This document shows positions 3,339-61,401 of a stretch of DNA of 64,000 bases, one piece after another. The translations under genes were made by a program, and so were the position numbers. The stretch is from Dictyostelium discoideum (taxonomy: Eukaryota). The DNA lies in NCBI GenBank assembly GCA_000004695.1, contig CM000154.2, positions 768,001 to 832,000 on the forward strand. The letters are read 5' to 3'. The notes beneath the pieces were generated by a model that saw nothing but the letters and a program-made list of their open reading frames with translations, ran no database searches and was not told where the DNA came from. Positions within the stretch are counted from its first letter, which is position 1; the number at the start of each line of letters is the position of its first letter.

Positions 3339-4816
<1,478 letters not shown>

Positions 4817-5674: not shown

Positions 5675-6479
5675 TTATTTATTTTCTTTTACTTTTCCTT
5701 TTTTTGGAATTAATTTTTTACTACTGGTTTTCTTCTTTTCTCTTTTCTTTGAATTATTGTCAGACATTTCTTTTAATAGAGTTGAAGCTGGACCAGCAAA
5801 TCCTTGTTGTTCAGTTAAAGATTCTAATAAATTTTTTACAAGATTTAAATTTAAATCAACTTTTTGATTTACTTTATAATTTTCATTATCATCTTCATCA
5901 ACATCTTTGTCATTATTATTAATATTATTATTATTATTATTATTACTTTTTTCAATATCATCAAATTCTTTTGGTAATTTGGTTGACTCCAATTCAAAAG
6001 AAGAAGCAATAATCTTTAAATTTAATTCTTGATCCATTCTTTCCATGTATTGTTTTATGGTTGATTTCTTTAAAAATTCAACATATTGGAATTCTTTTTC
6101 ATCATCATCATCTTCATCTTCATCTTCATATTCTTCAAAACCATCATCTTCATCATCTTCATCATTTTCATCATCTTCATCATCATCTTTGTCATCACTA
6201 TCTTCATAATTATCAATATCTTGGTACATATCATCATCATCGTCATCATCGTCGTCATAATCATCATCATATTTGTTATTATCAGTAAAACCCTTTAGTA
6301 TATCCATGAATTTATTTGAATCAAATGAAATATTATCATCACCACCATTACCATAAGCACTACTTTTAGTTTTATTTTTAGAATTTCCAGATTTTTCGTT
6401 AAATTCTACACCATCAAATGAGGATAGTTGAGAAAGCATTGATTTGAATTGATTCGAAAAATCATTTATTAAATTTGAA

Positions 6480-6565
<86 letters not shown>

Positions 6566-6595
6566 TTCTTTAACTTCTTTTTTACCTTCTTTATT

Positions 6596-6628
<33 letters not shown>

Positions 6629-8026
6629 CTGTTGTTGTTTTTGACGATCATTTTCAAATTCTGTAATTAAATCTTCAAATTTATCAGGATTCTCTTCATT
6701 TAACCAATCATCCTCTGATTCAATTTTACTTTTATCAGATTCTTGTAAAATTTTTATCATTTCATCAACTGATTTTGAATTTGTAACTTGATCAATTAAT
6801 TTATAAATTGATTCTTCTTCTTTATTATTATTATTATTATTATTATTAATATTATTTTTTAAATATTGATTTTTAGCAATTAATAATTTCTCTTTATATA
6901 ATTTTGAACCAATAGTTTCATCATTGAAATAATTATTTGATTTTAATTGTTTTAAATAGTTTAACCAATTCAAATCATCATTGAATCTATGATATGAGGA
7001 TACAGAATTCCTTTTGGATCTATTATAAACCATCTCTAAACCACAAATGATTTTAACACCTAATGATCTTGAATCGTAGGTTGGATGTGAGGGTTTTGGT
7101 AATTGTGGATGAAAATTCTTTGGACTATTCCATTGTTGAAGTTTTAACATTGCATAAAGACAACGAGTGAATCTAATATTGGTTGTTATCAATTGACCTG
7201 AATTACCAAACGAGTCTCTTTCTCTACTCATTGGAAATCTTTTCATTGTGCTAATGGTTTTCATATCATCTGAATCTCTATTATAAAATGTTGTTGTTAT
7301 ATCTGATATTAATTGTGGATATTGATTTAATAAATATCCAATCTCAATTGGTATCGCTGCTAATTTTATTTGATTTTGATCTTTTAAAAAATATTCACCA
7401 TTATAAAATCTAAAAAATGAAAAAATAAAATTAATAAATCTATAAATATATATATATCTAAAATGAAAATGAAAATTAAAATAAAAATAAAATTACCTTT
7501 TTAATCTATTTTTTAAAATTTCATTAATTTCATTTGAAACTTTTGTAATAATATTATTTGAAGATGATGATAATATTGATAAAGCAGTATTTGTATCCAT
7601 TTTATAAGGAATTGTATCTAATTGAGAAGGATCCGAAGGTAATGGTATTATATGAATTTCACCATTTTTTAAGTAAACTCTATTATTAGAATTTGTAGGT
7701 TTTATCCATTTTGGTAATGCTTGAGCAGTTTCAATTAATATAAATTCACCATCATTGTCTTTAATTGAAACAATTAATGATTGAAACTTTTTTGTTAATT
7801 CTAATAAAATATAAACTATAAACCATTCATCATCAATTGATTCTTCAAATTTAGTATTTCCATAAAAATGAATTGGTAGTTGTTGTTGTTGCTGTTGTTT
7901 CTTTTTATGGTCATAAATTTTTAAATTAAATGGTTCTTTTTGCCAAATATAATCTTTAATATAATTTAAAATTAAATATTCTTTAATTTCATTTAATTTA
8001 TTTGTTATAGTGGTATTTTCGTTATT

Positions 8027-11107: not shown

Positions 11108-11157
<50 letters not shown>

Positions 11158-11160
<3 letters not shown>

Positions 11161-14100
11161 AAATTAAATAAAATAATTTCAAATTATTTATTAATAATAA
11201 TAATTTCATTAATAATAATAACAACATCAACAATTGTTAATGGTTGTAAAGATGTTGTATTAGATTATACAGAAGATGTACCAAGTAGTTCAACTTCAAC
11301 ATGTTTAGGAACAACGCCATCAGTAACATTTAATAATTATCAGGTTTATAGTGTTTTCAAAATTTCACCAACACCAATTTCAATTGCAACCGATGTAAAT
11401 AAAAAGATAGTAACATTTAAATATGATACAACATATACTTTAAATTATAATGTTGGAGAAGGTTGTACAGAAAATACAAAAGCATTTAAATATGATTCAT
11501 TATCACCACCAGTTGCACAATTCACAGTTACTCAAGGAAAATGCTCATACTCTGAAAGTTCCATAACAATAACAAATCCTCAATCAATATCAGAATATGA
11601 ACTTAAATTAATTAATTCTACTAATGGTGGTGGTAATGGTATTATTAAATTAAATTCAACCAATCCAACTGCAACTATAAGTAAAAGTGGTCAATGGATA
11701 TTATCAGATTCTAGTTTAGGTGCTTCATATGAACCATGTGAAAGAGTGATTTCAATTGATCAACCATCAACAGGCTATCCAGAGTTTACAATTACTTCAC
11801 CAAGTTGTTATGGTAATAATGGTTCAATCGTTGTATCATCAGCTACTGCTTCAAGTTTCACTTCAATTACTTTAACAAATACATTGAATGGTAATTTAAT
11901 TACATCATCAAGTGTTGGTTCATTCACTTCACTTGAAAGTGGTAATTATATATTATCATTGACAAGTAATGCTTGTGGAAAACAATTAATTCCTGTAGCC
12001 CTGGATCCAATAATGCCAAGATTAGCATTCACCTACACCGATGTAACATGTCCATCAAAACCAAAGATTAAAGTATCAATTGATGATCCAAATATCCCAT
12101 CCACTGAAACATTTACAATGACAATCAATGGTATTGCATCAATTGATAATCTATTATCACCAATTATCACATTAGAAAATCAAACTTCTCTTCCATTTAC
12201 ATTCTCTTATAAAAATTGTTTATCAAGTTTTTCATTACCAATGAATCAACCACAAATGAATTTAGCATTTTCAATTGATAGCCAAGAGAATTCATTATAC
12301 GATTGCTCATTAACATCATCATCATCGTCGATTAATTTAAATTATGATAAATCAAGTATTACAGATTTAAATGTTAAATTAGTTAATGATGGTAGTACTA
12401 TAACACCAATTGATTCAAATTTAAATAAATATTCAATTAAAACTAATCAACAATTATCAATTTCATCATCATGTTATGTTAATCCATTATTCATTGAATT
12501 ACCACAACCTGAACCAATTATAAATGTTGATGGTGGAATTAATGGAATAGGTTGTTATGAGAATACTACGATTTCAGTTTATAATCATTTAGATTTTTCA
12601 TCAATAAAACTAGTACCATTAGATTCACCAACTACCTCTATACAATTAAATAGTGAAACTGGTCAATTTACAAATATTTATCGTAAATCTTATAATTTAG
12701 TTTACCAATATTGTTCAACATCAATTGAATCAAGTAAATTATTAAATCTTGCAAGTTCAACTTTAACTTCCTCTCAATATATTTTGGAACAAGATAGTAC
12801 TACAAATGATTTAGATTGTAAAACTGGTGGTGTTACTGTAAAAGCAACTTTTATAAAATCAGATTCAACAAAATTAGATCCAATTTATTCTTTTTTTAAT
12901 CCAAATCAAATTACACCAATTCAATTTAAAATCAATGATAATTGTATAATTGATTTAAATTTTAATCAAAATATTACTTTTAATTCAAATTGTAAGTATA
13001 ATACTAAAATTATAAATATTTATTTTAATAATGATTACTAATAATAATAATTGTTTTATGAAAATAGATTTAAATTTAAATAATAAACCAATAATTAAAA
13101 TTAATAATTCAACATGTTTATATTCAAATGATGGATCAATTGAAATTGATGGAAATGGTATTGATATTGGTAGTGTTTTAATTGGTGATCAATTATTTAG
13201 AAAATCTTCAAATGGAGTATATGGTGGTTTAAATGTTGGTAGTTATCAAGTTTCTTTAATTTATAGTACAATTAGTTCAAATCTATTTTGTGGTGGTCAA
13301 AAATATGATGTTGGTACCGTTACCATTGGTTCAATTGATTCTAGTTTTAATGTTGTTGTAAATTCAGTTTCAAATGCTAATTGTCAAACTAATGGTAATG
13401 ATGGTTCAATTACAATTGAAAATCCAACAACATTTAAATCAATTTCAATAGCAAGTGGTGGTGGTGGTGGTACAAATGTTGCAGTTAATGGTGTTTTATC
13501 AAATTTACAATCAGGTTTACATAAAGTTGATTTCGAAAGTATTGATTCAAAATGTAAAGGTTCATTCCCAGTTTTTGTTGGTAGTGCAGGTACAGAACCA
13601 ACTATTACTTTAAATTTAATTCAACCTTCAACATGTTATTCTGATCCTTCAATTTCATCAGTTTCAAATGTTATTGGTGATGGTATTCTCTCTATTGGTA
13701 TATTTAATTCATCAGGTGATAGTACGGAAGTTTCAAAAGTAATTGATGTAAATTCAAATAATTTACAATTCACAAGTCAAACTGGTGCTATACCAATTTC
13801 ACCAGGTAATAAAGTGTTAATCATTTATTCCGGTACATGTGCTTATAGAAAAACTATAACAATTCCACATACCGATCCATCATTATCATATAGTTCAACC
13901 TTTGATTACAATTGTTTTAATCAATTTGAAAATGGTATAATTTCAAGTTCATTAGAATCAAATTTCAATGTTGTTATAAATTCAGTTAAAGTTACAACAA
14001 CAACACCAACACCAACACCAACTACTACAACTTCAATTATTAATAACTCACCATTTGTAATTAATAATTTACAAAGTGGACAATATTCAGCATTAGTTAA

Positions 14101-15577
14101 ATGGAACTCAGTTTGTCAATCAGTATTACCAATTGTAACGAAATCAGTTAGCCCAATAACACCACCACCACCAACTTTTACAATTACTCATGATACTTCA
14201 ACTTGTTTATCAGATTATAACTATCATTTACAAATTACAAATATGGAAAAATATTCGAGCGTTTCAATTAACGGTAGAATTCAAGATGATTCAAATGGTA
14301 ATTTCTTTATGTTACCAGTTACAAGTGGTGAAATCATTTATAAAGATAAATCTACTCAATGTATTGGTAAGGTTAATTTCAATTTTGACCCTTTGACAAC
14401 AACCGCCACTCCTTTATCAACAAATCCAAACATTAATAAAACATTTGAAACATGTCATGGATCATGTGATGGAACATTACAAATTAGTAATAATATTTTA
14501 AATGAAACTTATTATCATTATTCATCAATTTCAATTAGAGAGAATAGTAAAAGATTTTTAACACCATTCAAACCATCAATGTCATCCGGTATTAATTATT
14601 ATGGAATTTCAACAACAAATTTATTATTTAATGAAATTGGTAAATCGAATCCATTTTGTATAATTTCAAAACCAATTTCATTTACATCTTTTGAACCGAT
14701 AATTGTAAATTTAAATGGTGAATCATGTTTAGTATTTAATAATGATACCGATATGGTTTTATATACAAATGTAACAAACCCACAAACAAATATATCAACC
14801 ATTGTAGTTTCATATAAGGGTAGTTCAAAGAATATTGGCTCCATTGAAGCTATGGTCAGAGTATTTGATGATGAAAATAGTGATATTGAATCATTGCCAA
14901 CTAGTTTAACTGCAACTTATAAATTGGTTAATACTAATACACCAAGTTCAATAATTCCATCAACAAGTAATAGCATTGCTGATTATGATAATTTATCATT
15001 TGGTAATTATTTATTAACAGCATCAATCACTAATAAACAATGTAAAAGATCTTTAGTACAATCATTTAAATTGGATAATACAACCAATAATGCATTCTTA
15101 ATTAAATTAGATACTACCAATTATTGTGAAGCTGTTAGAATAGTACCATTCAATATGAATCTATTATTTAACTATTATATCACAAATTCATCAGGTGGTT
15201 TAGTTTATCAATATTTAAATAAAACCGGTGTTGTAATTAGTGATTATTTGGATAGTGAAATGCAATACACTGTAAAAGCAGTTCAAATCAATAGTAATGG
15301 TGGTGATCAATATATAAGCTCATGTAATTTGATTGTCCAATCAAAAATTTGCCCTGTTAATAATGATTCTCAAATTAAATTAATCGTTGGTTTAGCATTA
15401 GGTTTATTGGTTGCTGCTTTCATCATAGTATATGCTATCTATAAATTAAGACAAAGACAAATTAAAAAGAATAATAATGAAAAATTAAAAGAAAATGAAC
15501 ATCCTCAAGAAGATGATGATCAAGAAGAAGAAATTGATGAAAATTATCGTCATCATAATATGATGGTTGAAATGTAA
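11158..15577 (+). CDS. Large (~1448 aa) type-I membrane glycoprotein with repeated Cys-x(2-4)-[ND]-G-S-I modules. Exons 11158..12991 and 13068..15577.
   Basis: Signal peptide MKLNKIISNYLLIIIISLIIITTSTIVNG. The two long ORFs in different frames are joined by a 76-nt intron (GTAAGT at 12992, ...AAAATAG at 13067, phase 1). Recurrent modules include SPSCYGNNGSIVVSS, NSTCLYSNDGSIEIDGNG, NANCQTNGNDGSITIENP and ETCHGSCDGTLQISNN. There is a Thr/Pro linker TTTTPTPTPTTTTS. C-terminal TM IKLIVGLALGLLVAAFIIVYAIY plus a basic/acidic cytoplasmic tail. Confidence 0.8.
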
Positions 15578-24494: not shown

Positions 24495-29051
<4,557 letters not shown>

Positions 29052-29544: not shown

Positions 29545-30867
29545 TTAAATTATTAATGATAAAATTAAGGATAAAGTAACAAATAATGATAAAACCAATT
29601 TTGAAGATGATGAATTTGAAGAACTAGAGTCTAAAGATGATTCACCACCAAGTACTGGATCATGAGTTAAATTATTTGGACGAATTGCATCAAATGAATG
29701 AATTAAAAACTTTGATTGGAAGAAACCATTTCCAAAACATTGTTTAATCATTAATGCACCGAAATCATTGAATTTTGAATATTCAGTTGTGTTTGAAATT
29801 ACTTTAACATCAGTTGAGTCACCTTTATCATTTGTAACTGAAGCTTGAGTTACCCATGAAAAACCAGCATTAATTTCTTCATTTTTTATTTCAATATTTG
29901 AATCTTTTTTATTATGTTCATCTCTATCAATATCAAGTTCAATGTTTTTACTTTTAGTTGCAAAAAATGAAGTTATTGCTAATCTTGATTGATTATTATT
30001 TGAAGGACCAGTGGAAGCACAATTTAAATTTTTAATATTTTTGGAATCAAATTGACATCCATTACTTTTTACATTAATTGATTCATTGTAATAACCAATG
30101 ATTGAAACATCAACTTTTGATTGTTCAGCTGATAATTTAACATCACCAACATTGATTGGTGCTCCACTAATGTAAAATACCATTTGGAAAATATTATTAT
30201 CAGAAGTAACTTCAATTTGATAGACAGTAAAATTTTTACCATTATTTCCTTCCATTTCTTTTTGATCTCTAGTTAATGAATATTTTTGTTTTGATAAATT
30301 TATGTAACCCAAAATTTCATCACCACCATATTGAAAACCTTCAATACTATTATTTTCAGCATATTCAATAATAAAAGTTGGCATATATCCTATTGAAATT
30401 TTTGAAAATTCAATATCATGATGGTCATCAGACGATTCTTCATCCGAACTAGCACTACTATTTGTTGGATTATTGGTATTATTACCATTGAGTTCTAATG
30501 AAAAGAAATTGAAAAAGTAGTTTGGGAATTGTGTAGCTTTTCTATTACATGTTTGGAAATTAAAAATACTGGTGTCAACTTTAAGGTCTTTAACAATACT
30601 TTTATCAACTGAAACTCCATTGGCTGAGAATGAAGGACATCCTGATTTATCATTGGTTCTTATTTTATAGGAACGGAAAACATCATCTTCTTCAGTAGCT
30701 GATTTAATTTTATCTATTAAAAATTAAAAATATTTTTTTTTTTATAATGTTAATAATTAAATTAAAAAAAAAACAATTGTTTAATAAAAAAAATAAATAC
30801 CCCAATGTTTTCCATACACAGAATAAGTGGTGAATAAAAGAAGAATTAAACAAATTAAAATTTTCAT
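29545..30867 (-). CDS. Secreted, probably GPI-anchored protein (~411 aa). Exons 30801..30867 and 29545..30713.
   Basis: Exon 1 encodes the signal peptide MKILICLILLLFTTYSVYGKHW. An 87-nt intron follows (donor GTATTT, acceptor TTAATAG, phase 1). The C-terminus SSSSSKLVLSLFVTLSLILSLII is a Ser-rich stretch followed by a hydrophobic tail, typical of a GPI signal. Confidence 0.65.
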
Positions 30868-41662: not shown

Positions 41663-44425
41663 TTAATTTATTTTATTCTTTAAAATTTTTAATAATGGTT
41701 TCATTAATTCAATTGTTTTTTTATCAAATCTAATTAATTCATTGTTAATTATTTTATCAACATTTTTTAAATAATAATTATCATTCTGATCAGTGAATAA
41801 TTTTGAATGAATATTTAAATATTGTGATTGATTTTTCAAAATTATTATTTCCAATAATTTTAAATTTAAAGTATGAATACTTTTATAAATGATATAATAT
41901 AAATCTAAACTAAATGTGTCACCTATAACTCTTTTTGATTGTTTTTCAAATATTGATAATTTACCATTATTACTATCATTATTATTTCTATTTCTATTAT
42001 AAATTATTGATGTAGTATAACAACTTGATTTTAAAAATCCAATTTCAATTAAAAATAATAATGATTTTATATTATTATTTTTTTCACTAATAAATATACT
42101 TTTATTTGATGGAATTGAATAAGACTTTAATTTAAAACAATCATAAATAATTCTTTTCTTTAATTGAAATTTATTATTTTTACCAAAACTAAAAATTCTT
42201 TTTTCTAAAATTTTAATAATTGAACCAATGATTGAGAAGAAATGTTCCTTTAATGAAATTTTAAGAATTATTAAAATATCATAATTTGAAAATAGTTTAA
42301 TATTATCTAAATTTCCAGTATCAATTAATTGTTGTAAATCTAATTTAAATATACCTGTGAATTGTAAATTTAAAATTTGAAATCTTGATTTAACATATCC
42401 ATATAAATATTTATATTTATCAAAACTTTTATAATCAATTAAATTGTTATAAATTAGTGAGTTAAATTCATTCATTATTAGTTCAATATAATATTGAAAA
42501 TTAGATGATGAACCAGTTTCATCATTAATTCCACCAACTAAATTTGTTAAAAAAACATTTCTTTGGGTTGGATTATTTGGTAATGCTTTAACTAAATCAT
42601 AAATAAATTGATATTTAGTTTCTGGAAAATCAAAATTATCATTTATTTTAGGTTCAGAAATAAAATCATCAATTCTAAATGAATTTAGAATTTTTTTAAT
42701 TAAATTTGAAGATTGTTCAATTACTTTGTCATCATCATTATGATCATTTCCTTGAGATTTTAAAAATTTTAAAATTGTAAATCGATTTACAGGATTTTCA
42801 AGTGTTGGTACCAATGCTTGAGTTAATAAATAATCAGTAACATTATAAAATCGTTTTTTAAATGAATTTATAATTAATTCTGAAAAAATGATTCTTTTTT
42901 CACAATTTTCTAAATAAGTTTTAACCATTTCTAAATCACCACCAAAGAAATCAATTGTCATTAAATTTGGTTTTACAATCCATCTATTTCTAAAGAATTT
43001 AATTAAAATTTCATTTGAAAGTGTTTCTTTAAAAGAATCTAATAATAAAATTGATTTTGATTCAATGAAAAATATTTCATTTTCTTTAATTGCTAATGTT
43101 GAATCTGTGAATTGTAATGGACAACTCTTTGTAATATTATTATTTTTAATACTATTGTTTTTAAAATTTTCAATTAAAAATCTAGCAATCTTTGGACAAT
43201 TAATTTTAAATGAAACTAAATTTTCACCACCACCACCAGCACCATTATTTAAATTATTTAAAAATTTATTTGATTTTGTTTTAACTACCATTAGAAATAA
43301 TTCAAACATATTAATAACACTAAATAATAAAAAGCAATTAACTTGTGAAAATAATTTAATAAATGTGCTATCTAAAATTTTAATACCATAAATTTCAATT
43401 ATTAAATTTGGTCTATTTGATTCTACTTTACTAGTTTCATTAATATTAAATAAATTTAAAAATAATTTCATTAATATTAAATCATTTGATTCTAAAATTT
43501 TATTAATTAAATTAAAAAATAATGTTGGTTTATTTTTAATTTCTTCTAAAACTTGTTTATTAATTATTGGTAATGATATAATTTCTTTATTTATTCTATT
43601 AATTGAATTAATAAAGAAATCAATAACTAATTCAATTGAATCTAATGGTGGTGGTGATGATGGTGATGATAGTGATGGCGGTAGTAGTTGAATTTCTTCA
43701 ATATTAATAATTGATTTATTTGAATTGAAAAATAATGATGATGAAAAGAAATAATCTAAATTTAAAGATTTATTTGGTATTTTATTTTCAATCTTTTCTA
43801 ACCACATTGTGAATTGAATTTTTGAAATTTTTAAACCATTAAATAATTTCAAAAATGTTTGAAATTCAATTGAGGTACATGGCGTTTTTCTATCCAATAA
43901 AAAGATTTCACAATATACTATGAATGTATCATATTTACCAAATGCGTAATTTTCATCGGTTGGATTCAATTCATAGTTTTTATTTTCAATAAATTGTTGT
44001 TTTAGAAATGATAATATTTCAATATTTGAATTTTTGAATATCAAATTTCGATTTTTTTCAAAAAAGAAACTATTGAATTTAATTGATAAAATTTCATTTT
44101 TAAATAATTGATAATATTTTCTAAATGTGTTTATTGATAAATTGGTCCAATTTAATAATTGAATATAATTATCACCATTGAAATCAATATAATAATTAAA
44201 TGATTTATCATTTTCAATATCATTTGAATCCATATATTTAATAAATAAATCTAATCTTTGATTTAACATAATTTCATTTTTAGTTTTAATAATTGATGTT
44301 ATTGGAAAATCATAGAAATTATAAGTTGTAAATTTATTTTGTTTATTAATTTCTTTAATCTCTTTAAAAATTTTATTATTTATTAATTCATTTCTAAATA
44401 ATGAAAGAAATAAATCATTTGACAT
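41663..44425 (-). CDS. Hypothetical protein, 920 aa, single exon, Leu/Ile/Asn/Phe-rich, no recognisable domain.
   Basis: Long uninterrupted ORF with coding-like amino-acid diversity. No motif recognised by eye. Confidence 0.6.
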   Translation of the reverse strand: MSNDLFLSLFRNELINNKIFKEIKEINKQNKFTTYNFYDFPITSIIKTKNEIMLNQRLDLFIKYMDSNDIENDKSFNYYIDFNGDNYIQLLNWTNLSINTFRKYYQLFKNEILSIKFNSFFFEKNRNLIFKNSNIEILSFLKQQFIENKNYELNPTDENYAFGKYDTFIVYCEIFLLDRKTPCTSIEFQTFLKLFNGLKISKIQFTMWLEKIENKIPNKSLNLDYFFSSSLFFNSNKSIINIEEIQLLPPSLSSPSSPPPLDSIELVIDFFINSINRINKEIISLPIINKQVLEEIKNKPTLFFNLINKILESNDLILMKLFLNLFNINETSKVESNRPNLIIEIYGIKILDSTFIKLFSQVNCFLLFSVINMFELFLMVVKTKSNKFLNNLNNGAGGGGENLVSFKINCPKIARFLIENFKNNSIKNNNITKSCPLQFTDSTLAIKENEIFFIESKSILLLDSFKETLSNEILIKFFRNRWIVKPNLMTIDFFGGDLEMVKTYLENCEKRIIFSELIINSFKKRFYNVTDYLLTQALVPTLENPVNRFTILKFLKSQGNDHNDDDKVIEQSSNLIKKILNSFRIDDFISEPKINDNFDFPETKYQFIYDLVKALPNNPTQRNVFLTNLVGGINDETGSSSNFQYYIELIMNEFNSLIYNNLIDYKSFDKYKYLYGYVKSRFQILNLQFTGIFKLDLQQLIDTGNLDNIKLFSNYDILIILKISLKEHFFSIIGSIIKILEKRIFSFGKNNKFQLKKRIIYDCFKLKSYSIPSNKSIFISEKNNNIKSLLFLIEIGFLKSSCYTTSIIYNRNRNNNDSNNGKLSIFEKQSKRVIGDTFSLDLYYIIYKSIHTLNLKLLEIIILKNQSQYLNIHSKLFTDQNDNYYLKNVDKIINNELIRFDKKTIELMKPLLKILKNKIN

Positions 44426-55154: not shown

Positions 55155-57733
55155 TTCCCAAAAATAATTAAGCAAATAAAACAAATTATTATTTTACGGT
55201 TAATCAAGAATCATTTGAAGAAGCATTAGATAGATTTTCATCATTTTTTATATCACCATTAATGAATGAGGATGCAGTTAATAGGGAATTGAATGCTGTG
55301 GATTCAGAACATAATAATAATATGCAAAAAGATTTTTGGAGAATGGATAGAATTGTTAATGATCAATTTGAAGGTCACCCAATGTCAATGTTTTTCACTG
55401 GTGATAGTTCAACCTTGAAACGTGATGATATCCGTGAGAAGGTTGTTGAATTCTATCAACGTTACTATAGTGCCAATTTAATGAAAGTTTGTATCTTTGG
55501 TAGGGAATCTTTGGATCAATTGGAGGAGTATGCAAATAAATACTTTTTACCAATTGTTAATAAGGATGTGAAAGTTCCAAAGCTTCCACCGTTGGCCATC
55601 ACGTCGAAATCGATAATGATCGAAGCAGAGCCAACACAAGATATGGATCTTTTGAAATTTGTTTTTCCAATACCCGATGAAAAGTTATGCTTCTCAAAGA
55701 ACTACAAGAATGCAAGTGCAAGCATTCTATCACATATATTGGGTCATGAATGCCAAGGTAGTCTATTTTCAGTGTTGTTCAATAAAGATTATGCATTCTC
55801 TCTATCCATTAGTAGTAATTCATTCTATGAGAATATGAACAAAATTGAAATTCAAATTCACCTAACCAAAACAGGCTTAGAGAATGTAGACGAAGTTATA
55901 GCCTTACTCTTTCAATCGTTTGAATTTGATACACCAGAATACTTTTTCACAGAGAAGAAACTTTTAAGTGAAATCAATTGGAAATCTTTTCAAAAAAGTG
56001 CACCCGCCAGCACCACCCAAGCCATCACCAGTAACTTGTTCCGTGTTGAAAGACCAGAGGAAACATTAAAGTATAATAACTTTTTAGAGCAATTTGCACC
56101 AGAGAAAATTAAAGAGATTCAAAGTTATCTTCGTCCTGATAATATGATTTGTTTATTCTATTCCTCAACCAAATTCAAAGGTAAAACCACCGAAATCGAA
56201 CCACATTATAAAATTAAATTCAACAAAAGATACATTGAACAATCAGATTTCGATAAATGGAAATCTTTCCCAAAGAATACCAATCTTTTCCTACCAAAAG
56301 AGAATCCATTCCTCCCAATCGATACTACCATCAAAGCGCCACAAGATCATTCAATTCATATTCCAAAGGAGGTTTACAACAACAATGGTGTTAAAGTCTA
56401 TCATTCATTGGACCATCGTTTCAATTCACCAAAGGCCAGAGTCAACATTCGTTTCGAATTGACTTCCTATGGTAATAATCAATCGATGGTAATGTGGAAT
56501 CTCTTAAAGAAATCACTTAAAGAGGTATTGAATGAAAAGATTCTTTACTATCTTTCAGTTTTAGATTTCTCAATGAAACTTCAAATTCTTACCACTCATG
56601 TAGAATTGCAATGCTATTGCTTCAATGATATCATCTTCACTGCGTTGGGCAAGGTTTTTGACTTTTTAATGAATTTAGATCTAAATGATATGCAATTCAA
56701 AAGAATCAAAGAAAAGGTTGCAAAAAGATTCCTCAGTAGTCATTATCTATCACCCTATCAAATTTCAATGCGTCATTTATCTTTACATAATTTTAATTGT
56801 AATTCAATGTTATTGGATAAACAAGAATACTTGAAAAAAGTGACAAAATCAGAATTCCTCAATTATTTCAAATCATTATTCTCCTATATCAATTTTAGCG
56901 CTATGGTAGTTGGTAATGCTTCCATTGAGGATGCTTGTGCTTTTGGTGAGAAACTCAATTCATTCTCTAATCGTAATTCCGCTTGTCCAGGTGAAGTTTT
57001 CAAATTGGCAAGAGTGAATTTACCATCGAATACAATCACTCATCAAAGAGAGTTTCTTTATGATACCAATCAAACCAATTGCTCCTCTTCCATTTCTTTC
57101 CTTATTGGTCAATTCAATAGAAAAACCTATGCAACTACATTGGTGATTTGTTCAATTTTAGGTAGTGCTTACTTTGAAGAACTTAGAACTAAAAAACAAT
57201 TTGGTTACGTTGTAAATTGTGCTCAAGATTGTACGGGAAATGCCATTTCAATGCGTTGTATCGTTCAGTCACACACTAAAACCCCTGAAGAAATTTTCGA
57301 TGCCACTATGGAATTCTTTGTTGGTTTTGAAAAAACTTTAGATTACTTCAAAACAAGTCCCTCTGATTTTAAGGATCTCATTGAGAATTGTCAAAAACAA
57401 AACACAGTAAAACAACAAAGTAATAGTGCTCAATCTTCGCTCTATTGGAGTTTCTTCACTTTTTGTGGTGATTTCGAATTTGAAAAAAAGAAATATGAAG
57501 ACATTGGTAAAATCACTTTTGATGATGTCAAACAATACTATCTCGATCATCTCTCTCCAAATACCGCTAATTTACGTATTTTCGCAGCTCATTGTTATCC
57601 ACAATCTTATCAAATTCCTGATGAAGTTAAACCTTTTGGAAATGTAAAAGTTAATCTCCTTAGAAAATATGAACATGATAATTTTAAAGAAAATCATGGT
57701 TATTTATCATCAAAAGTAAATTTACAAAAATAA
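54730..57733 (+). CDS. M16A zinc metallopeptidase, insulysin / insulin-degrading-enzyme-like (~962 aa). Exons 54730..55057 and 55173..57733.
   Basis: GLAHFLEHMLFLGTEKFP is the inverted HxxEH zinc motif. After a 115-nt GTATGT...TTAAG intron (phase 1), TNYYFTVNQESFEEALDRFSSFF and ELNAVDSEHNNNMQKDFWR match IDE blocks. The start is the ATG at 54730; the ORF-track M at 54721 is a TTG. Confidence 0.88.
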
Positions 57734-58725: not shown

Positions 58726-61401
58726 ATGGATGTAGAATTCACACCCAGTGACACAAATAAATTTGAAGCTAATATTACCAAACAACACCAAGTGATTGAA
58801 TTGAATAATCAAGAAGAACAACAACAACCAGAACAACAAGAACAACCAGAACAACAAGAAGAACTAAAAGATAATAACGAAAAGATAAAAACTAGTGAAG
58901 ATTCAACAACAACCACAACAACAACAGCAACAATTACAACCACTGGTGAAAACTCAATTTCAATTACAGTTACAGAGGCAAATAATAACACTAATCAATT
59001 AAATAAAAGCACTAGTAGCAGCAGTAGTTTAAATAATAATAAAAACGAAGACAATAAGAGTGTTACTGCATCAATTGCACCATCATCACCAGTCATTGAA
59101 TCATCTGCAATAGAATCAGCAATTGACTCACCATACATTTCATCTGCTTCAGTATTTTCAAACGCCACCAATAATAACAACAACACCACCACAACAAACG
59201 TTGTAGTACCACCACCACAATTACTTGAGTCTTCAACTGAAAATATTACATCTGCAGCTGAAATTACACCAGTGACAACAACAACAACAGAAGAGACAAT
59301 TAATATTCCAAAAGAATCAATAGAAGTACAAAAACAACTAGCAGAAACAACAACAACAGCAGCAATAACTACTACCAATTCAACACAAGTAACATCAACA
59401 ACTGTAACAAATCCAGATAAATTAAAGTGTAAAATGCATAGATCAAATTTTATAATGACACAAATTGGTGGAAAAAAATTCACAGAGATGACATTAGAAC
59501 AATTATTGGATGAAGATGACCCCCAAACTGGTATGGGGTTTAAGAATCCTGGTCCTCAAGGATTCTTAGAATATGTTGGTGATACTGCACCACCACCAAC
59601 ACCACCACCAATTTCAACATCCAACACAACTGGTAAAAATACAGGTAAAAACTCAACAACAGGTAAAAGTGAAGGCAAAAAAGCAACTTCAAACAGTTCA
59701 AATGTACCACCAAGTCCAGTACTTGCATCATCAGCTTCACCATCACCAAAATTAAAATCATCCTCATCTTCAATTAGAAATAGTGGTGCCATTTCAGGTA
59801 CAAGTGAAAATGGTGGTGGTGGTAATGGAAGTGGTACAATTTCAAAGAATACAGCACCTACAACAGGTAATTCTACTACCACCACCACCACCACCACATC
59901 TACAACAACATCATCATCAAAAGATAGAAAGAGTGTTGTTCAAAAACAATCAACATTAGGTAGATTACAAAAGAATGAAGAAGAAAGAAGAAAGAGAAAA
60001 GAACAAAAGAGAAGTCGTGCTCGTGAAAAACCAATTCTAATCGCAGGTATTGAGGATTTACCAGCTGAATGTTTAAAGATGGTAAAGAAATCAAAGATTC
60101 CAGAGGATAAATTAATTCAACACCTTAATATTTTATTACCAATACTTAGATTTAGAACTGGATATAATTTAAGACATGTACCAATTGTATCATCTAATAA
60201 TTCAACAAATTCTTTAGGTTCATCAATAAATAAAAATAATTCAAATAATACTACCACTACTACTACTACAACCAATACAAATAATAAATCACCAGAAGTC
60301 TCAACAAATAGTCTTGATGTAAATATAATAAACCAAAACCAAAACCAAACAAATTCTGTACAAAATAATCAAATTAACACAAGTTCAAATGTAATAACAA
60401 CAAATGTAATACCAACTACAACAGCATCTCAAAGTAGTCAAGCACCATACCATCCAAGTCATAACGGAAATGAAGAGGATGATTATGATGATGGATCACG
60501 TTTAGAGAATGCAATTTTACCAAAAGGTACCGTCGACTTGATTGAAACTGATAGAGACGTTAAAAAATTATATAAAAATTTAAAACAAATCGGAAGCGGT
60601 GGGTTTGGTAGTGTATTTTTAGCAAAATCAACCGTTGATAAATGTGAAATTGCCATTAAAAAGATTGCACATGTATCAGCAAAAGCACAAAGAACCAATC
60701 TCAATGAGATTGGATTTTTAAATTTCTGTAAGCATCCAAACATTGTCAGTTACTTAAGAAGTCATTTGGTTGATGATACCATTTGGATCGCTATGGAGTA
60801 TATGCAAGGTGGCACTTTAACCGAAGCAAGTCAAGGCCACACTTTCAATGAGTCGTGTATCGCTTACGTTGCAAAGGGTATGTTGGAAGGCTTAATGTAT
60901 TTACATGCTCACAACATCGTTCATAGGGATATTAAATCGGGTAACATTATGATGACCATCGATGGTAAAATCAAGATTGTCGATTTCGGTCTTTGTGTCG
61001 ACGCAAATGAAAGAAAATTAGTACATATGGCAGGTTCCCCTTTTTGGATGTCTCCAGAGATGATTCGTGGTGAGTCCTATGGCTGTCCAACCGATATTTG
61101 GAGTTTTGCAATTTGTCTTTTGGAATTGGCAAATGGTGAACCACCCCACAGAAAATCTTCCCTCACTGCTATGTTCACCACTGCAACTGAGGGTTGTGCA
61201 GGTTTGGACAAACCTGAAAGATGGACCGAACACTTTACTCATTTCTTAAATCTTTGTTTAGAAATGGATCCTTCAAAGAGATCAACTGCCGAACAACTTT
61301 TAAAACATCCTTGGATTAATTTATCTGAAAATCCTGAAACTATGAAAAAGATTTTAGCTCAAATTTTCATTGCGAATGTTATGAATCATTTAGATAATTA
61401 A
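58726..61401 (+). CDS. STE20/PAK-family serine/threonine protein kinase (891 aa, C-terminal kinase domain).
   Basis: Kinase subdomains: IGSGGFGSVFLAKS, AIKKI, HPNIVSY, VHRDIKSGNIMM, IVDFGLC and GSPFWMSPE (compare PAK GTPYWMAPE). The long N-terminal half is T/S/N/Q-rich low complexity. Confidence 0.9.
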   Translation: MDVEFTPSDTNKFEANITKQHQVIELNNQEEQQQPEQQEQPEQQEELKDNNEKIKTSEDSTTTTTTTATITTTGENSISITVTEANNNTNQLNKSTSSSSSLNNNKNEDNKSVTASIAPSSPVIESSAIESAIDSPYISSASVFSNATNNNNNTTTTNVVVPPPQLLESSTENITSAAEITPVTTTTTEETINIPKESIEVQKQLAETTTTAAITTTNSTQVTSTTVTNPDKLKCKMHRSNFIMTQIGGKKFTEMTLEQLLDEDDPQTGMGFKNPGPQGFLEYVGDTAPPPTPPPISTSNTTGKNTGKNSTTGKSEGKKATSNSSNVPPSPVLASSASPSPKLKSSSSSIRNSGAISGTSENGGGGNGSGTISKNTAPTTGNSTTTTTTTTSTTTSSSKDRKSVVQKQSTLGRLQKNEEERRKRKEQKRSRAREKPILIAGIEDLPAECLKMVKKSKIPEDKLIQHLNILLPILRFRTGYNLRHVPIVSSNNSTNSLGSSINKNNSNNTTTTTTTTNTNNKSPEVSTNSLDVNIINQNQNQTNSVQNNQINTSSNVITTNVIPTTTASQSSQAPYHPSHNGNEEDDYDDGSRLENAILPKGTVDLIETDRDVKKLYKNLKQIGSGGFGSVFLAKSTVDKCEIAIKKIAHVSAKAQRTNLNEIGFLNFCKHPNIVSYLRSHLVDDTIWIAMEYMQGGTLTEASQGHTFNESCIAYVAKGMLEGLMYLHAHNIVHRDIKSGNIMMTIDGKIKIVDFGLCVDANERKLVHMAGSPFWMSPEMIRGESYGCPTDIWSFAICLLELANGEPPHRKSSLTAMFTTATEGCAGLDKPERWTEHFTHFLNLCLEMDPSKRSTAEQLLKHPWINLSENPETMKKILAQIFIANVMNHLDN

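Follow-up and report, generated by a model that had tools for sequence, protein, structure and literature searches.

We describe here a gene in a 64,000-nucleotide stretch of Dictyostelium discoideum DNA (GenBank assembly GCA_000004695.1, contig CM000154.2, positions 768,001 to 832,000 of the forward strand). This whole stretch is called the window, and positions are counted from its first letter. The gene, DDB_G0287833, encodes a large single-pass protein whose extracellular part appears to consist of units related to SprB, a repeat of bacterial adhesins. Phagocytosis, adhesion and the way multicellularity arose are all studied in D. discoideum as a main model. To our knowledge, its known adhesion receptors (Sib, SadA, Tgr and Csa) do not explain all of its binding to substrate and particles.

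Two open reading frames on the + strand, 11158..13041 and 13031..15577, are the two pieces of the gene. As an earlier note made from the letters of this DNA had proposed, they are bridged by a canonical intron into one protein:

11158-12991, + strand: exon 1, amino acids 1-611 and the first base of codon 612 (from the open reading frame and the splice frame)
12992-13067, + strand: intron of 76 nucleotides, phase 1, GTAAGT...ATAG (its removal restores a single open reading frame)
13068-15577, + strand: exon 2, the remainder of codon 612 to amino acid 1447, with the TAA stop at 15575-15577

The spliced reading frame has 4344 nucleotides, that is, 1447 codons and TAA; a length of 1448 amino acids given previously had counted the stop codon. 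The product is identical in every residue to XP_637085.1 (UniProt Q54JR7), the protein of DDB_G0287833 in D. discoideum strain AX4, which the databases annotate as “hypothetical protein.” We found no mention of DDB_G0287833, Q54JR7 or XP_637085 in the literature searched, and none linking “SprB repeat” with Dictyostelium. Within the window, tblastn finds no second copy of the gene. A run of 49 consecutive A (11109-11157) abuts the start codon, and the surrounding 300 bp have a G+C content of only 8%; this is an extreme yet Dictyostelium-typical 5' leader.

A Kyte-Doolittle scan of the protein shows exactly two hydrophobic segments, residues 3-31 and 1379-1406. Hydropathy thus gives the type-I layout that had been suggested earlier, with a signal peptide, one transmembrane helix and a short charged tail:

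11158-11244, + strand: signal peptide, amino acids 1-29 (MKLNK, a hydrophobic core, and VNG before Cys30; hydropathy windows 3-31 above 1.8)
11245-15376, + strand: ectodomain, amino acids 30-1381 (1352 amino acids, with the intron inside), marked by its cysteine periodicity
15377-15445, + strand: transmembrane helix, amino acids 1382-1404, KLIVGLALGLLVAAFIIVYAIYK (hydropathy up to 2.83)
15446-15574, + strand: cytoplasmic tail, amino acids 1405-1447 (43 amino acids), a basic stop-transfer sequence RQRQIKK followed by an acidic cluster and ending in DDQEEEIDENYRHHNMMVEM-COOH

To judge from its sequence, the signal peptide is likely cut after VNG29; it is the least conserved region among orthologues (24% invariant). 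Across four species of the D. discoideum complex, 92% of the transmembrane helix is invariant, and the final 20 residues of the tail (DDQEEEIDENYRHHNMMVEM) are identical in six of six sequences from this complex. The tail (LRQRQIKK...IDENYRHHNMMVEM) contains no NPxY motif.

The ectodomain has 33 cysteines (Cys), and their spacing is highly regular. Short gaps (19-35 amino acids) strictly alternate with long gaps (42-105 amino acids). The gaps have a lag-1 autocorrelation of -0.70, and for the distance from each Cys to the next but one the coefficient of variation is 0.19; not one of 20,000 shuffles equalled either value. The ectodomain is therefore periodic, as the earlier note had held, and the Cys pattern delimits about 15 units of about 85 amino acids each:

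11245-11490, + strand: unit 1
11491-11763, + strand: unit 2
11764-12009, + strand: unit 3
12010-12252, + strand: unit 4
12253-12507, + strand: unit 5
12508-12747, + strand: unit 6
12748-12990, + strand: unit 7
12991-13333, + strand: unit 8
13334-13597, + strand: unit 9
13598-13873, + strand: unit 10
13874-14158, + strand: unit 11
14159-14398, + strand: unit 12
14399-14692, + strand: unit 13
14693-15079, + strand: unit 14
15080-15376, + strand: unit 15

Repeat detection had been suggested as a check on this protein, and its outcome is divided. The Cys periodicity is clear, while comparison of the units with each other by hhalign (slices of the orthologue alignment) is mostly negative: the best pair reaches a probability of 71%, most pairs stay below 5%, and likeness is confined to units 3, 8 and 9, with a faint trace in 2 and 14. 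The periodicity therefore rests on the Cys spacing and on the one-to-one matches to bacterial repeats described below, not on self-similarity. Since the units are mostly dissimilar, the array is old, with units that have drifted apart, and not the result of a recent tandem expansion.

The protein contains four copies of the motif C-x(1-6)-[ND]-G-[ST]-[IL], at amino acids 217, 628, 717 and 1074, against 0.07 expected (0 of 20,000 shuffles reach this count):

11806-11829, + strand: CYGNNGSI, amino acids 217-224, start of unit 3; the sole stretch touched by the Pfam SprB model (PF13573)
13115-13141, + strand: CLYSNDGSI, amino acids 628-636, start of unit 8; in the alignment with 54 bacterial double repeats, its Cys and Gly lie in columns that are invariant or nearly so
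13382-13411, + strand: CQTNGNDGSI, amino acids 717-726, start of unit 9
14453-14479, + strand: CHGSCDGTL, amino acids 1074-1082, start of unit 13; it holds the one extra, odd-numbered Cys

The motif of unit 13 is kept as ETCxGSxDG in the consensus of the dictyostelid family introduced below. Each unit had been said to begin with a Cys and a DGSI or NGSI turn. This is correct at the four places then quoted, but the turn is present in only four of the about 15 units.

Serine and threonine make up 24% of the protein. A check for N-glycosylation sequons, also suggested earlier, found them depleted rather than enriched (20 observed, 32.6 +/- 4.7 expected). Two insertions stand out within the units:

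13457-13471, + strand: Gly run, amino acids 742-746, inside unit 9; five residues in AX4, ten in another strain and none in the sister species
13994-14032, + strand: Thr/Pro-rich, mucin-like insert TTTTPTPTPTTTT, amino acids 921-933, inside unit 11; its length and sequence vary among strains and species (columns 930-945 of the orthologue alignment A1)

Both are probably located in surface loops that tolerate insertions, and the Thr/Pro insert is a likely site of O-glycosylation.

A search with the single sequence returned orthologues only, from D. discoideum strains (94% identity), D. citrinum (85%), D. dimigraforme (80%) and D. firmibasis (77%). We also searched 1.84 billion cluster representatives exhaustively with HMMER, using a narrow group-4 profile of residues 190-1385. 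This search found 19 proteins: one orthologue already in the query alignment, one bacterial repeat protein, and 17 relatives of the same layout (in the range P0008-P0024), which are single-pass proteins of 1000-1360 amino acids, or fragments or fusions of such proteins. The species was identified for eight members of the family, all of them dictyostelid “hypothetical proteins.” They include the D. purpureum orthologue XP_003283492, which is 39% identical, and proteins from Polysphondylium violaceum (two), Tieghemostelium lacteum (two), Acytostelium subglobosum (one) and Synstelium polycarpum (one). In the family alignment of 19 sequences (A5), 14 paired Cys are invariant and seven more are at least 90% conserved, so the units correspond one-to-one between genera. 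Both exons align without a break to family members of other genera. A neighbour-joining tree is star-like except for a clean clade of D. purpureum and the D. discoideum complex. DDB_G0287833 has every feature of this dictyostelid SprB-like single-pass receptor family: a signal peptide, about 15 ordered units with a Cys pair, one transmembrane helix and a short tail. The protein had been suspected to be lineage-specific, and its relatives of the same layout indeed come from several dictyostelid genera; no eukaryotic carrier beyond the dictyostelids was found by the exhaustive search with its narrow group-4 profile or by a broad search that scored 8000 word-sharing candidates.

As far as these searches show, DDB_G0287833 is apparently single-copy in the D. 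discoideum lineage. One relative, P0010 (3222 amino acids), is modelled as a fragment of a RecA/Rad51-like ATPase at the N-terminus followed by three successive copies of the family protein, each with its own transmembrane helix and tail. The gene caller has probably merged a tandem gene cluster here, in which case the species of P0010 carries a local expansion of the family. The cytoplasmic C-termini of six more distant members (P0009, P0010, P0012, P0013, P0020 and P0022), among them proteins of P. violaceum and T. lacteum, share the ending [IV]F[TSQ]GGx[IV]xx[LI]DxF-COOH. It is lacking in the orthologues of the D. discoideum complex and D. purpureum, and it looks like a conserved docking or sorting signal.

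What are the units? SprB is the gliding adhesin of Flavobacterium johnsoniae, and its repeat defines the Pfam family PF13573. Scanned as a whole, the protein is assigned to no Pfam family; SprB, HYR, TIG, EGF and VWA are absent even at E <= 10. The bacterial member found by the exhaustive search is a Chitinophagaceae protein (E = 1.9e-4), matched in four stretches, with tandem repeats of the form QPDC..xGxIxV...G.Y.L.A...C. When the 19-member dictyostelid profile, which contains no bacterial sequence, was run against a database of 5.8 billion sequences, it found 62 further proteins, with E-values from 3.8e-77 to 5e-4. Those that carry a name or a source are from Bacteroidota or metagenomes. 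Nearly all have a precomputed PF13573 match, most have a type IX secretion system (T9SS) C-terminal domain (PF13585 or PF18962), and several are named “SprB repeat-containing” or “gliding motility-associated C-terminal domain-containing.” The matches are colinear over 150-600 residues, mostly from units 7 or 8 to units 10-14. The best domain of P0032, an Emticicia protein (70.9 bits; AX4 residues 623-1263 against 374-893, 520 residues), has all of its 13 Cys in register with the 13 of the consensus, and the L-x-x-G-x-Y strands fall together, through 6.5 consecutive repeats of equal period. Reversed and shuffled versions of the 62 bacterial proteins gave zero matches to the dictyostelid profile, so composition is not the cause of the similarity.

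The correspondence can also be followed in single units. When units 8-9 of five Dictyostelium sequences are aligned by MAFFT with 54 double repeats from bacteria, four of four Cys are invariant, and the motif Gly and G-x-Y are nearly so. We compared family slices of each unit by hhalign with a 300-sequence alignment of bacterial SprB repeats, and obtained the following probabilities for ten of the units:

unit 14: 94.8%
unit 3: 94.6%
unit 10: 91.3%
unit 9: 90.7%
unit 15: 89.6%
unit 13: 84.9%
unit 8: 64.6%
units 2, 4 and 12: 13-21%

On this evidence we take the units to be divergent homologues of the SprB repeat, both by working and by descent, even though they stay below the Pfam threshold. 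The anatomy of the repeat is present: tandem units of about 80 amino acids with two Cys, the turn (whose motif survives in four units) and L-x-x-G-x-Y. The likeness to SprB noticed in the earlier note is thus borne out by the Bacteroidota matches and the hhalign probabilities; a likeness to HYR (PF02494), which had been named in the same breath, found no support, with no match at E <= 10 in the whole protein or in ten separate units. In a survey of the G-protein-coupled receptors of social amoebae (PMC10445921), “SprB” is one of the Pfam/SMART domain abbreviations listed for the architecture figures, so SprB-type matches in amoebozoan proteins have been seen before in passing.

The fold of the repeat was approached with the following segment:

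13073-13603, + strand: units 8-9, amino acids 614-790, modelled as two 7-stranded beta-sandwich domains

With the alignment A6, in which these units are mixed with bacterial repeats, AlphaFold2 gives two all-beta domains with a mean pLDDT (predicted local distance difference test) of 84.4 and a pTM (predicted template modelling score) of 0.70. The model thus has the immunoglobulin (Ig)-like beta-sandwich fold of the SprB unit. Foldseek against the PDB matches it to tandem Ig and fibronectin type III (FnIII) pairs. The best match is to the Fn3-like modules of Clostridium thermocellum CbhA (E = 6.7e-5), and others include FcgammaRI, domains d1-d2 of CD45, SiiE and several fragments of the Aureispira grappling-hook protein GhpA. 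The SprB-repeat profile A6 matches GhpA (PDB 9flp) at E = 3.7e-78; GhpA is therefore a solved example of the SprB repeat type. Sequence searches of the PDB with the protein, with an alignment of units 3, 8 and 9 (A4) and with the family profile A5 gave no meaningful match in the ectodomain. A resemblance of A5 to CD166 and APP was confined to the juxtamembrane and transmembrane part and was judged to be hydrophobic-segment noise.

The GhpA stalk is described as a stiff series of successive Ig-like domains with Ser/Thr glycans and an inter-domain disulfide between Cys-2988 and Cys-3140 (bioRxiv 10.1101/2024.01.29.577165). In the model of units 8-9, the first Cys of a unit (Ca) lies after strand A, in the A-B turn, and the second (Cb) opens the last strand. 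In the FnIII topology these positions are at opposite poles, so that Ca of unit n would face Cb of unit n+1. Disulfides between Ca of one unit and Cb of the next most likely staple neighbouring domains together, to judge from this model. For most units 130-160 residues separate these two Cys, rising to about 200 at units 13 and 14, the two largest, and the 152-residue disulfide span of GhpA falls within the common range. The scheme also finds partners for the terminal Cys (C30-C103 and C1298-C1373), and of C1074 and C1078 just one is left free.

Several results weigh against homology with SprB and the fold and pairing drawn from it. Scanned unit by unit, Pfam SprB matches unit 3 at E = 0.0022 over 17 residues, with 18 bits where the gathering threshold is 28 bits, and it is found in two of the 19 family members at E <= 0.01 (best 0.0082). 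Units 1, 5, 6, 7 and 11 stay below 5% in the hhalign comparison with the bacterial repeats. The similarity beyond composition is weak in the reverse direction: a full-length hidden Markov model of the bacterial repeat misses the window protein and gives at most 34.5 bits on other family members, because the core of the bacterial repeat, GG-x-x-PY-x-Y-x-W, is gone from the amoeba units. With orthologues alone AlphaFold2 yields an unusable model of units 8-9 (pLDDT 39.9), and the good model depends on an alignment made mostly of bacterial repeats. The dictyostelid-only profile A5 does not reach GhpA in the PDB, so the structural link to GhpA is transitive. As to the disulfides, the Cys count alone would also fit a pairing of short-gap neighbours.

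Could the units instead be Ig-like domains that have converged on the SprB pattern, as an amoebozoan invention or by descent from generic eukaryotic Ig/FnIII domains? The subthreshold Pfam score, a bacterial model that barely sees the amoeba family and the absence of its core from the amoeba units would all agree with this, as would the fact that L-x-x-G-x-Y is common to several Ig-like families (as a weak Y_Y_Y match in the unit-by-unit Pfam scan shows). However, convergence would have to produce an E-value of 1e-77 from a profile without any bacterial sequence, 13 of 13 Cys in register across 6.5 consecutive repeats of the same period, hhalign probabilities that reach 95%, and not a single match in the reversed and shuffled controls. 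Moreover, all non-dictyostelid matches belong to one bacterial phylum and almost all to one Pfam family, not to assorted Ig-like families. We consider convergence improbable and keep to divergent homology with SprB.

An assembly labelled D. discoideum, GCA_054859385.1, allows the evolution of the gene to be followed between strains. Its protein is 94-95% identical to that of AX4, and the intron has the same position there, with 83 nucleotides. By the Nei-Gojobori method, the ratio of nonsynonymous to synonymous substitution rates (dN/dS) of DDB_G0287833 is 0.21 with dS = 0.097; in four neighbour genes of the same strain pair, dN/dS is 0.02-0.20 and dS is 0.045-0.125. DDB_G0287833 is a working gene under purifying selection. 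Exon 1 (units 1-7) has a dN/dS of 0.28 and the ectodomain part of exon 2 one of 0.17, and dN is zero in the transmembrane helix and tail. Among orthologues, 54-60% of positions are invariant in units 2-3 and 80-87% in units 6, 8 and 10. The membrane-distal half evolves somewhat faster.

The divergence between assemblies could be taken for that of a hyper-polymorphic self/non-self recognition gene like tgrB1/tgrC1, since the AX4 protein is only 95% identical to P0001 and P0006, the proteins of two assemblies labelled D. discoideum. But DNA identity is only about 90% across all of the 21-kb neighbourhood, the neighbour proteins are 72-99.7% identical, the dS of 0.097 lies inside the neighbours' range at a dN/dS of 0.21, and P0001 and P0006 are 98.5% identical to each other. 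The divergence belongs to the strain and not to the gene, and a hyper-polymorphic recognition gene is very improbable. Contig JBTAPF010000012.1 of GCA_054859385.1 (1-24424) aligns with window positions 1064-25611 at about 90% DNA identity over 21 kb, and synonymous divergence from AX4 is about 0.05-0.13 in five genes, far above the within-species expectation. These sequence comparisons suggest that GCA_054859385.1 represents a lineage that is cryptic or has been mislabelled. Its protein is P0001; another assembly of this kind, with the locus-tag prefix ACTFIW, is known from the protein P0006 only.

Dictyostelium cultures are fed bacteria, and the nearest relatives of the protein outside the amoebae are bacterial. 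One might therefore suspect a contaminant from the prey, or two unrelated open reading frames misjoined. Everything at the locus speaks against such an artefact. The coding stretches of the window have a G+C content of 24-32%, typical of Dictyostelium coding DNA, with 6-15% in intergenic stretches and 8-15% in the DNA flanking the gene. Its spliceosomal intron is conserved in position, syntenic orthologues exist, the signal peptide, transmembrane helix and tail are of eukaryotic type, and both exons align continuously with family members from other genera. The gene also lies among ordinary eukaryotic genes on 5-Mb contigs. We regard an artefact as practically negligible. The neighbours are unrelated to DDB_G0287833 (EF-hand, SGT1, adenylate-kinase-like, ABC transporter, RING, M16 peptidase and protein kinase genes), and surface-protein genes are not clustered around it. 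Features elsewhere in the window include:

3881-4816, + strand: EF-hand protein
5675-7264, - strand: SGT1-family protein
25488-29051, + strand: ABC transporter fragment (ABC_membrane and ABC_tran)
29545-30384, - strand: uncharacterised open reading frame of 279 amino acids with a hydrophobic C-terminus, no Pfam match at E <= 1e-5 (unrelated to the finding)
41663-44425, - strand: uncharacterised open reading frame of 920 amino acids, no Pfam match at E <= 1e-5 (unrelated to the finding)
55262-57733, + strand: M16 (insulinase-like) peptidase
58726-61401, + strand: protein kinase with a long low-complexity N-terminus

The interpretation that we favour, and hold to be rather probable, is that DDB_G0287833 encodes a type-I surface glycoprotein, an Ig-like rod of SprB type that serves adhesion or recognition and whose repeat was acquired from Bacteroidota. 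Cleavage of the signal peptide would expose a rod of about 15 tandem FnIII/Ig-like beta-sandwich domains, divergent homologues of SprB. Each unit would supply two conserved Cys, Ca in the A-B turn (C-x-x-[ND]GSI) and Cb at the start of the last strand, and disulfides joining Ca of unit n with Cb of unit n+1 would stiffen the rod into a stalk of about 50-60 nm, assuming about 4 nm per domain. One transmembrane helix would hold the rod in the membrane, and the strongly conserved acidic tail would probably serve sorting or adaptor binding. The rod would then act in adhesion or recognition away from the membrane, towards the substratum, bacteria or other cells, with the faster-evolving membrane-distal units making the contact. 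This is its most likely role if SprB and GhpA, both filaments that make contacts, and eukaryotic Ig/FnIII receptors are taken as guides.

A protein homologous to SprB might equally be imagined as a passive, heavily glycosylated spacer or part of the glycocalyx, or as a luminal protein of the endo-lysosomal system or contractile vacuole that its acidic tail keeps from the surface by sorting. The ectodomain, at 24% Ser and Thr and with its mucin-like TP insert, would suit such a role. An acidic cluster and a Tyr dominate the tail, as is typical of sorting signals; Pfam finds no ligand-binding domain besides the repeats, and the moderate conservation (dN/dS 0.17-0.28) is also what a purely structural role would leave. 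On the other hand, 15 domains kept one-to-one with invariant or nearly invariant Cys across genera seem more than a spacer needs, the closest relatives SprB and GhpA are contact-making appendages, and evolution is faster in the distal than in the proximal units, which is what a binding tip would show. No one of these arguments settles the matter, and we consider the spacer or luminal role unlikely but deserving of attention beside the adhesive one.

How did the repeat come to be in dictyostelids? In our searches its signature is restricted to Bacteroidota and Dictyostelia, which points to an ancient horizontal transfer. An opposing point is that the broad-profile search scored its 8000 candidates without returning the known dictyostelid relatives. 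From the distribution of the sequences, a transfer from a Bacteroidota bacterium, a prey of amoebae, into the dictyostelid stem is the most likely direction and timing. The transferred repeat would then have been fitted with a eukaryotic signal peptide, a transmembrane anchor, a tail and an intron. It is tempting to go further and propose that a whole SprB-type adhesin array, with its disulfide staples, was captured from Bacteroidota prey and made into a membrane receptor family kept domain-for-domain, with DDB_G0287833 as a long-reach receptor gripping, for example, bacteria or the substratum. We put forward this bolder version only tentatively and are inclined to doubt it.

A surface protein with Ig-like repeats is, as a class, unsurprising. 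What the analysis adds is a domain assignment for an unannotated “hypothetical protein” and the definition of a family, spread over several dictyostelid genera, that ties to a bacterial adhesin repeat missed by current Pfam models; a repeat of bacterial adhesins would here have been remade into a family of eukaryotic single-pass receptors. Should the function be adhesive, DDB_G0287833 becomes a new and easily testable candidate receptor, for which a knockout is feasible, and if it is indeed a receptor, a bacterial gliding-adhesin module would have been reused by a eukaryotic predator. If the horizontal origin holds, it would show clearly how a predator can domesticate a module of surface structures taken from the phylum of its prey, and the poorly understood SprB repeat would gain a tractable eukaryotic system for the study of disulfide stapling and glycosylation.

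How does the protein compare with known systems? Among Dictyostelium adhesion proteins, TgrB1 and TgrC1 have IPT/TIG domains, SibA-E have VWA and repeats, and SadA has EGF repeats; CsaA/gp80 is a further member of this set. Like these proteins, which are type-I or membrane-anchored surface glycoproteins with repeated extracellular modules and short tails, DDB_G0287833 has a modular ectodomain. Unlike Tgr, Sib and SadA, it has no TIG, VWA, EGF or other Pfam domain. The absence of a TIG match sets it apart from the Tgr proteins, as does the lack of extreme allelic polymorphism (dS and protein divergence within the neighbours' range, for one strain pair), and with neither VWA nor NPxY in its tail it does not resemble the integrin-beta-like Sib proteins. 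No Tgr, Sib, SadA or Csa protein is among the 19 matches of the exhaustive profile search. This comparison draws on the generally known Pfam domain composition of these families rather than on sequence alignment. The view that the modules are not the usual EGF or TIG of Dictyostelium thus holds at the level of domain composition; absence of periodicity and a clean fit to a known Dictyostelium adhesion family, the two outcomes named beforehand as counting against the earlier proposal, were both contradicted by the data.

Among bacterial modules, HYR is likewise an Ig-like module of about 80 amino acids in adhesins, and it sometimes stands beside SprB repeats, as in the bacterial match P0079, which has both. 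The closer likeness is to the SprB-repeat proteins of Bacteroidota. These share with DDB_G0287833 the tandem units of about 78-85 amino acids, the C-x-G-x-x-[ND]G-[ST]-I turn and the second Cys after L-x-x-G-x-Y-x-[VL], and they too are extracellular, very rich in Ser and Thr and filament-like. The amoeba protein differs in lacking the GG-x-x-PY-x-Y-x-W core, and only about half of its units are still recognizable. It has about 15 units, where most bacterial matches have about 15-30 and SprB itself has about 6500 amino acids. It does not belong to the T9SS adhesin class (SprB, RemA, GhpA): in place of a sorting domain (PF13585 or PF18962) its C-terminus is a transmembrane helix and tail, combined with an N-terminal signal peptide, and the gene is eukaryotic, with an intron.

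A further comparison is with GhpA, the only solved structure of the SprB repeat type (PDB 9flp, with fragments 9flu, 9flv, 9flx and 9g8b). GhpA is a T9SS-secreted protein of 5898 amino acids with an N-terminal hook, and it forms a heptamer, whereas nothing suggests oligomerization of DDB_G0287833. Its stalk, with Ig-like domains, disulfides between neighbours and Ser/Thr glycosylation, has the same geometry that we propose for the rod of DDB_G0287833.

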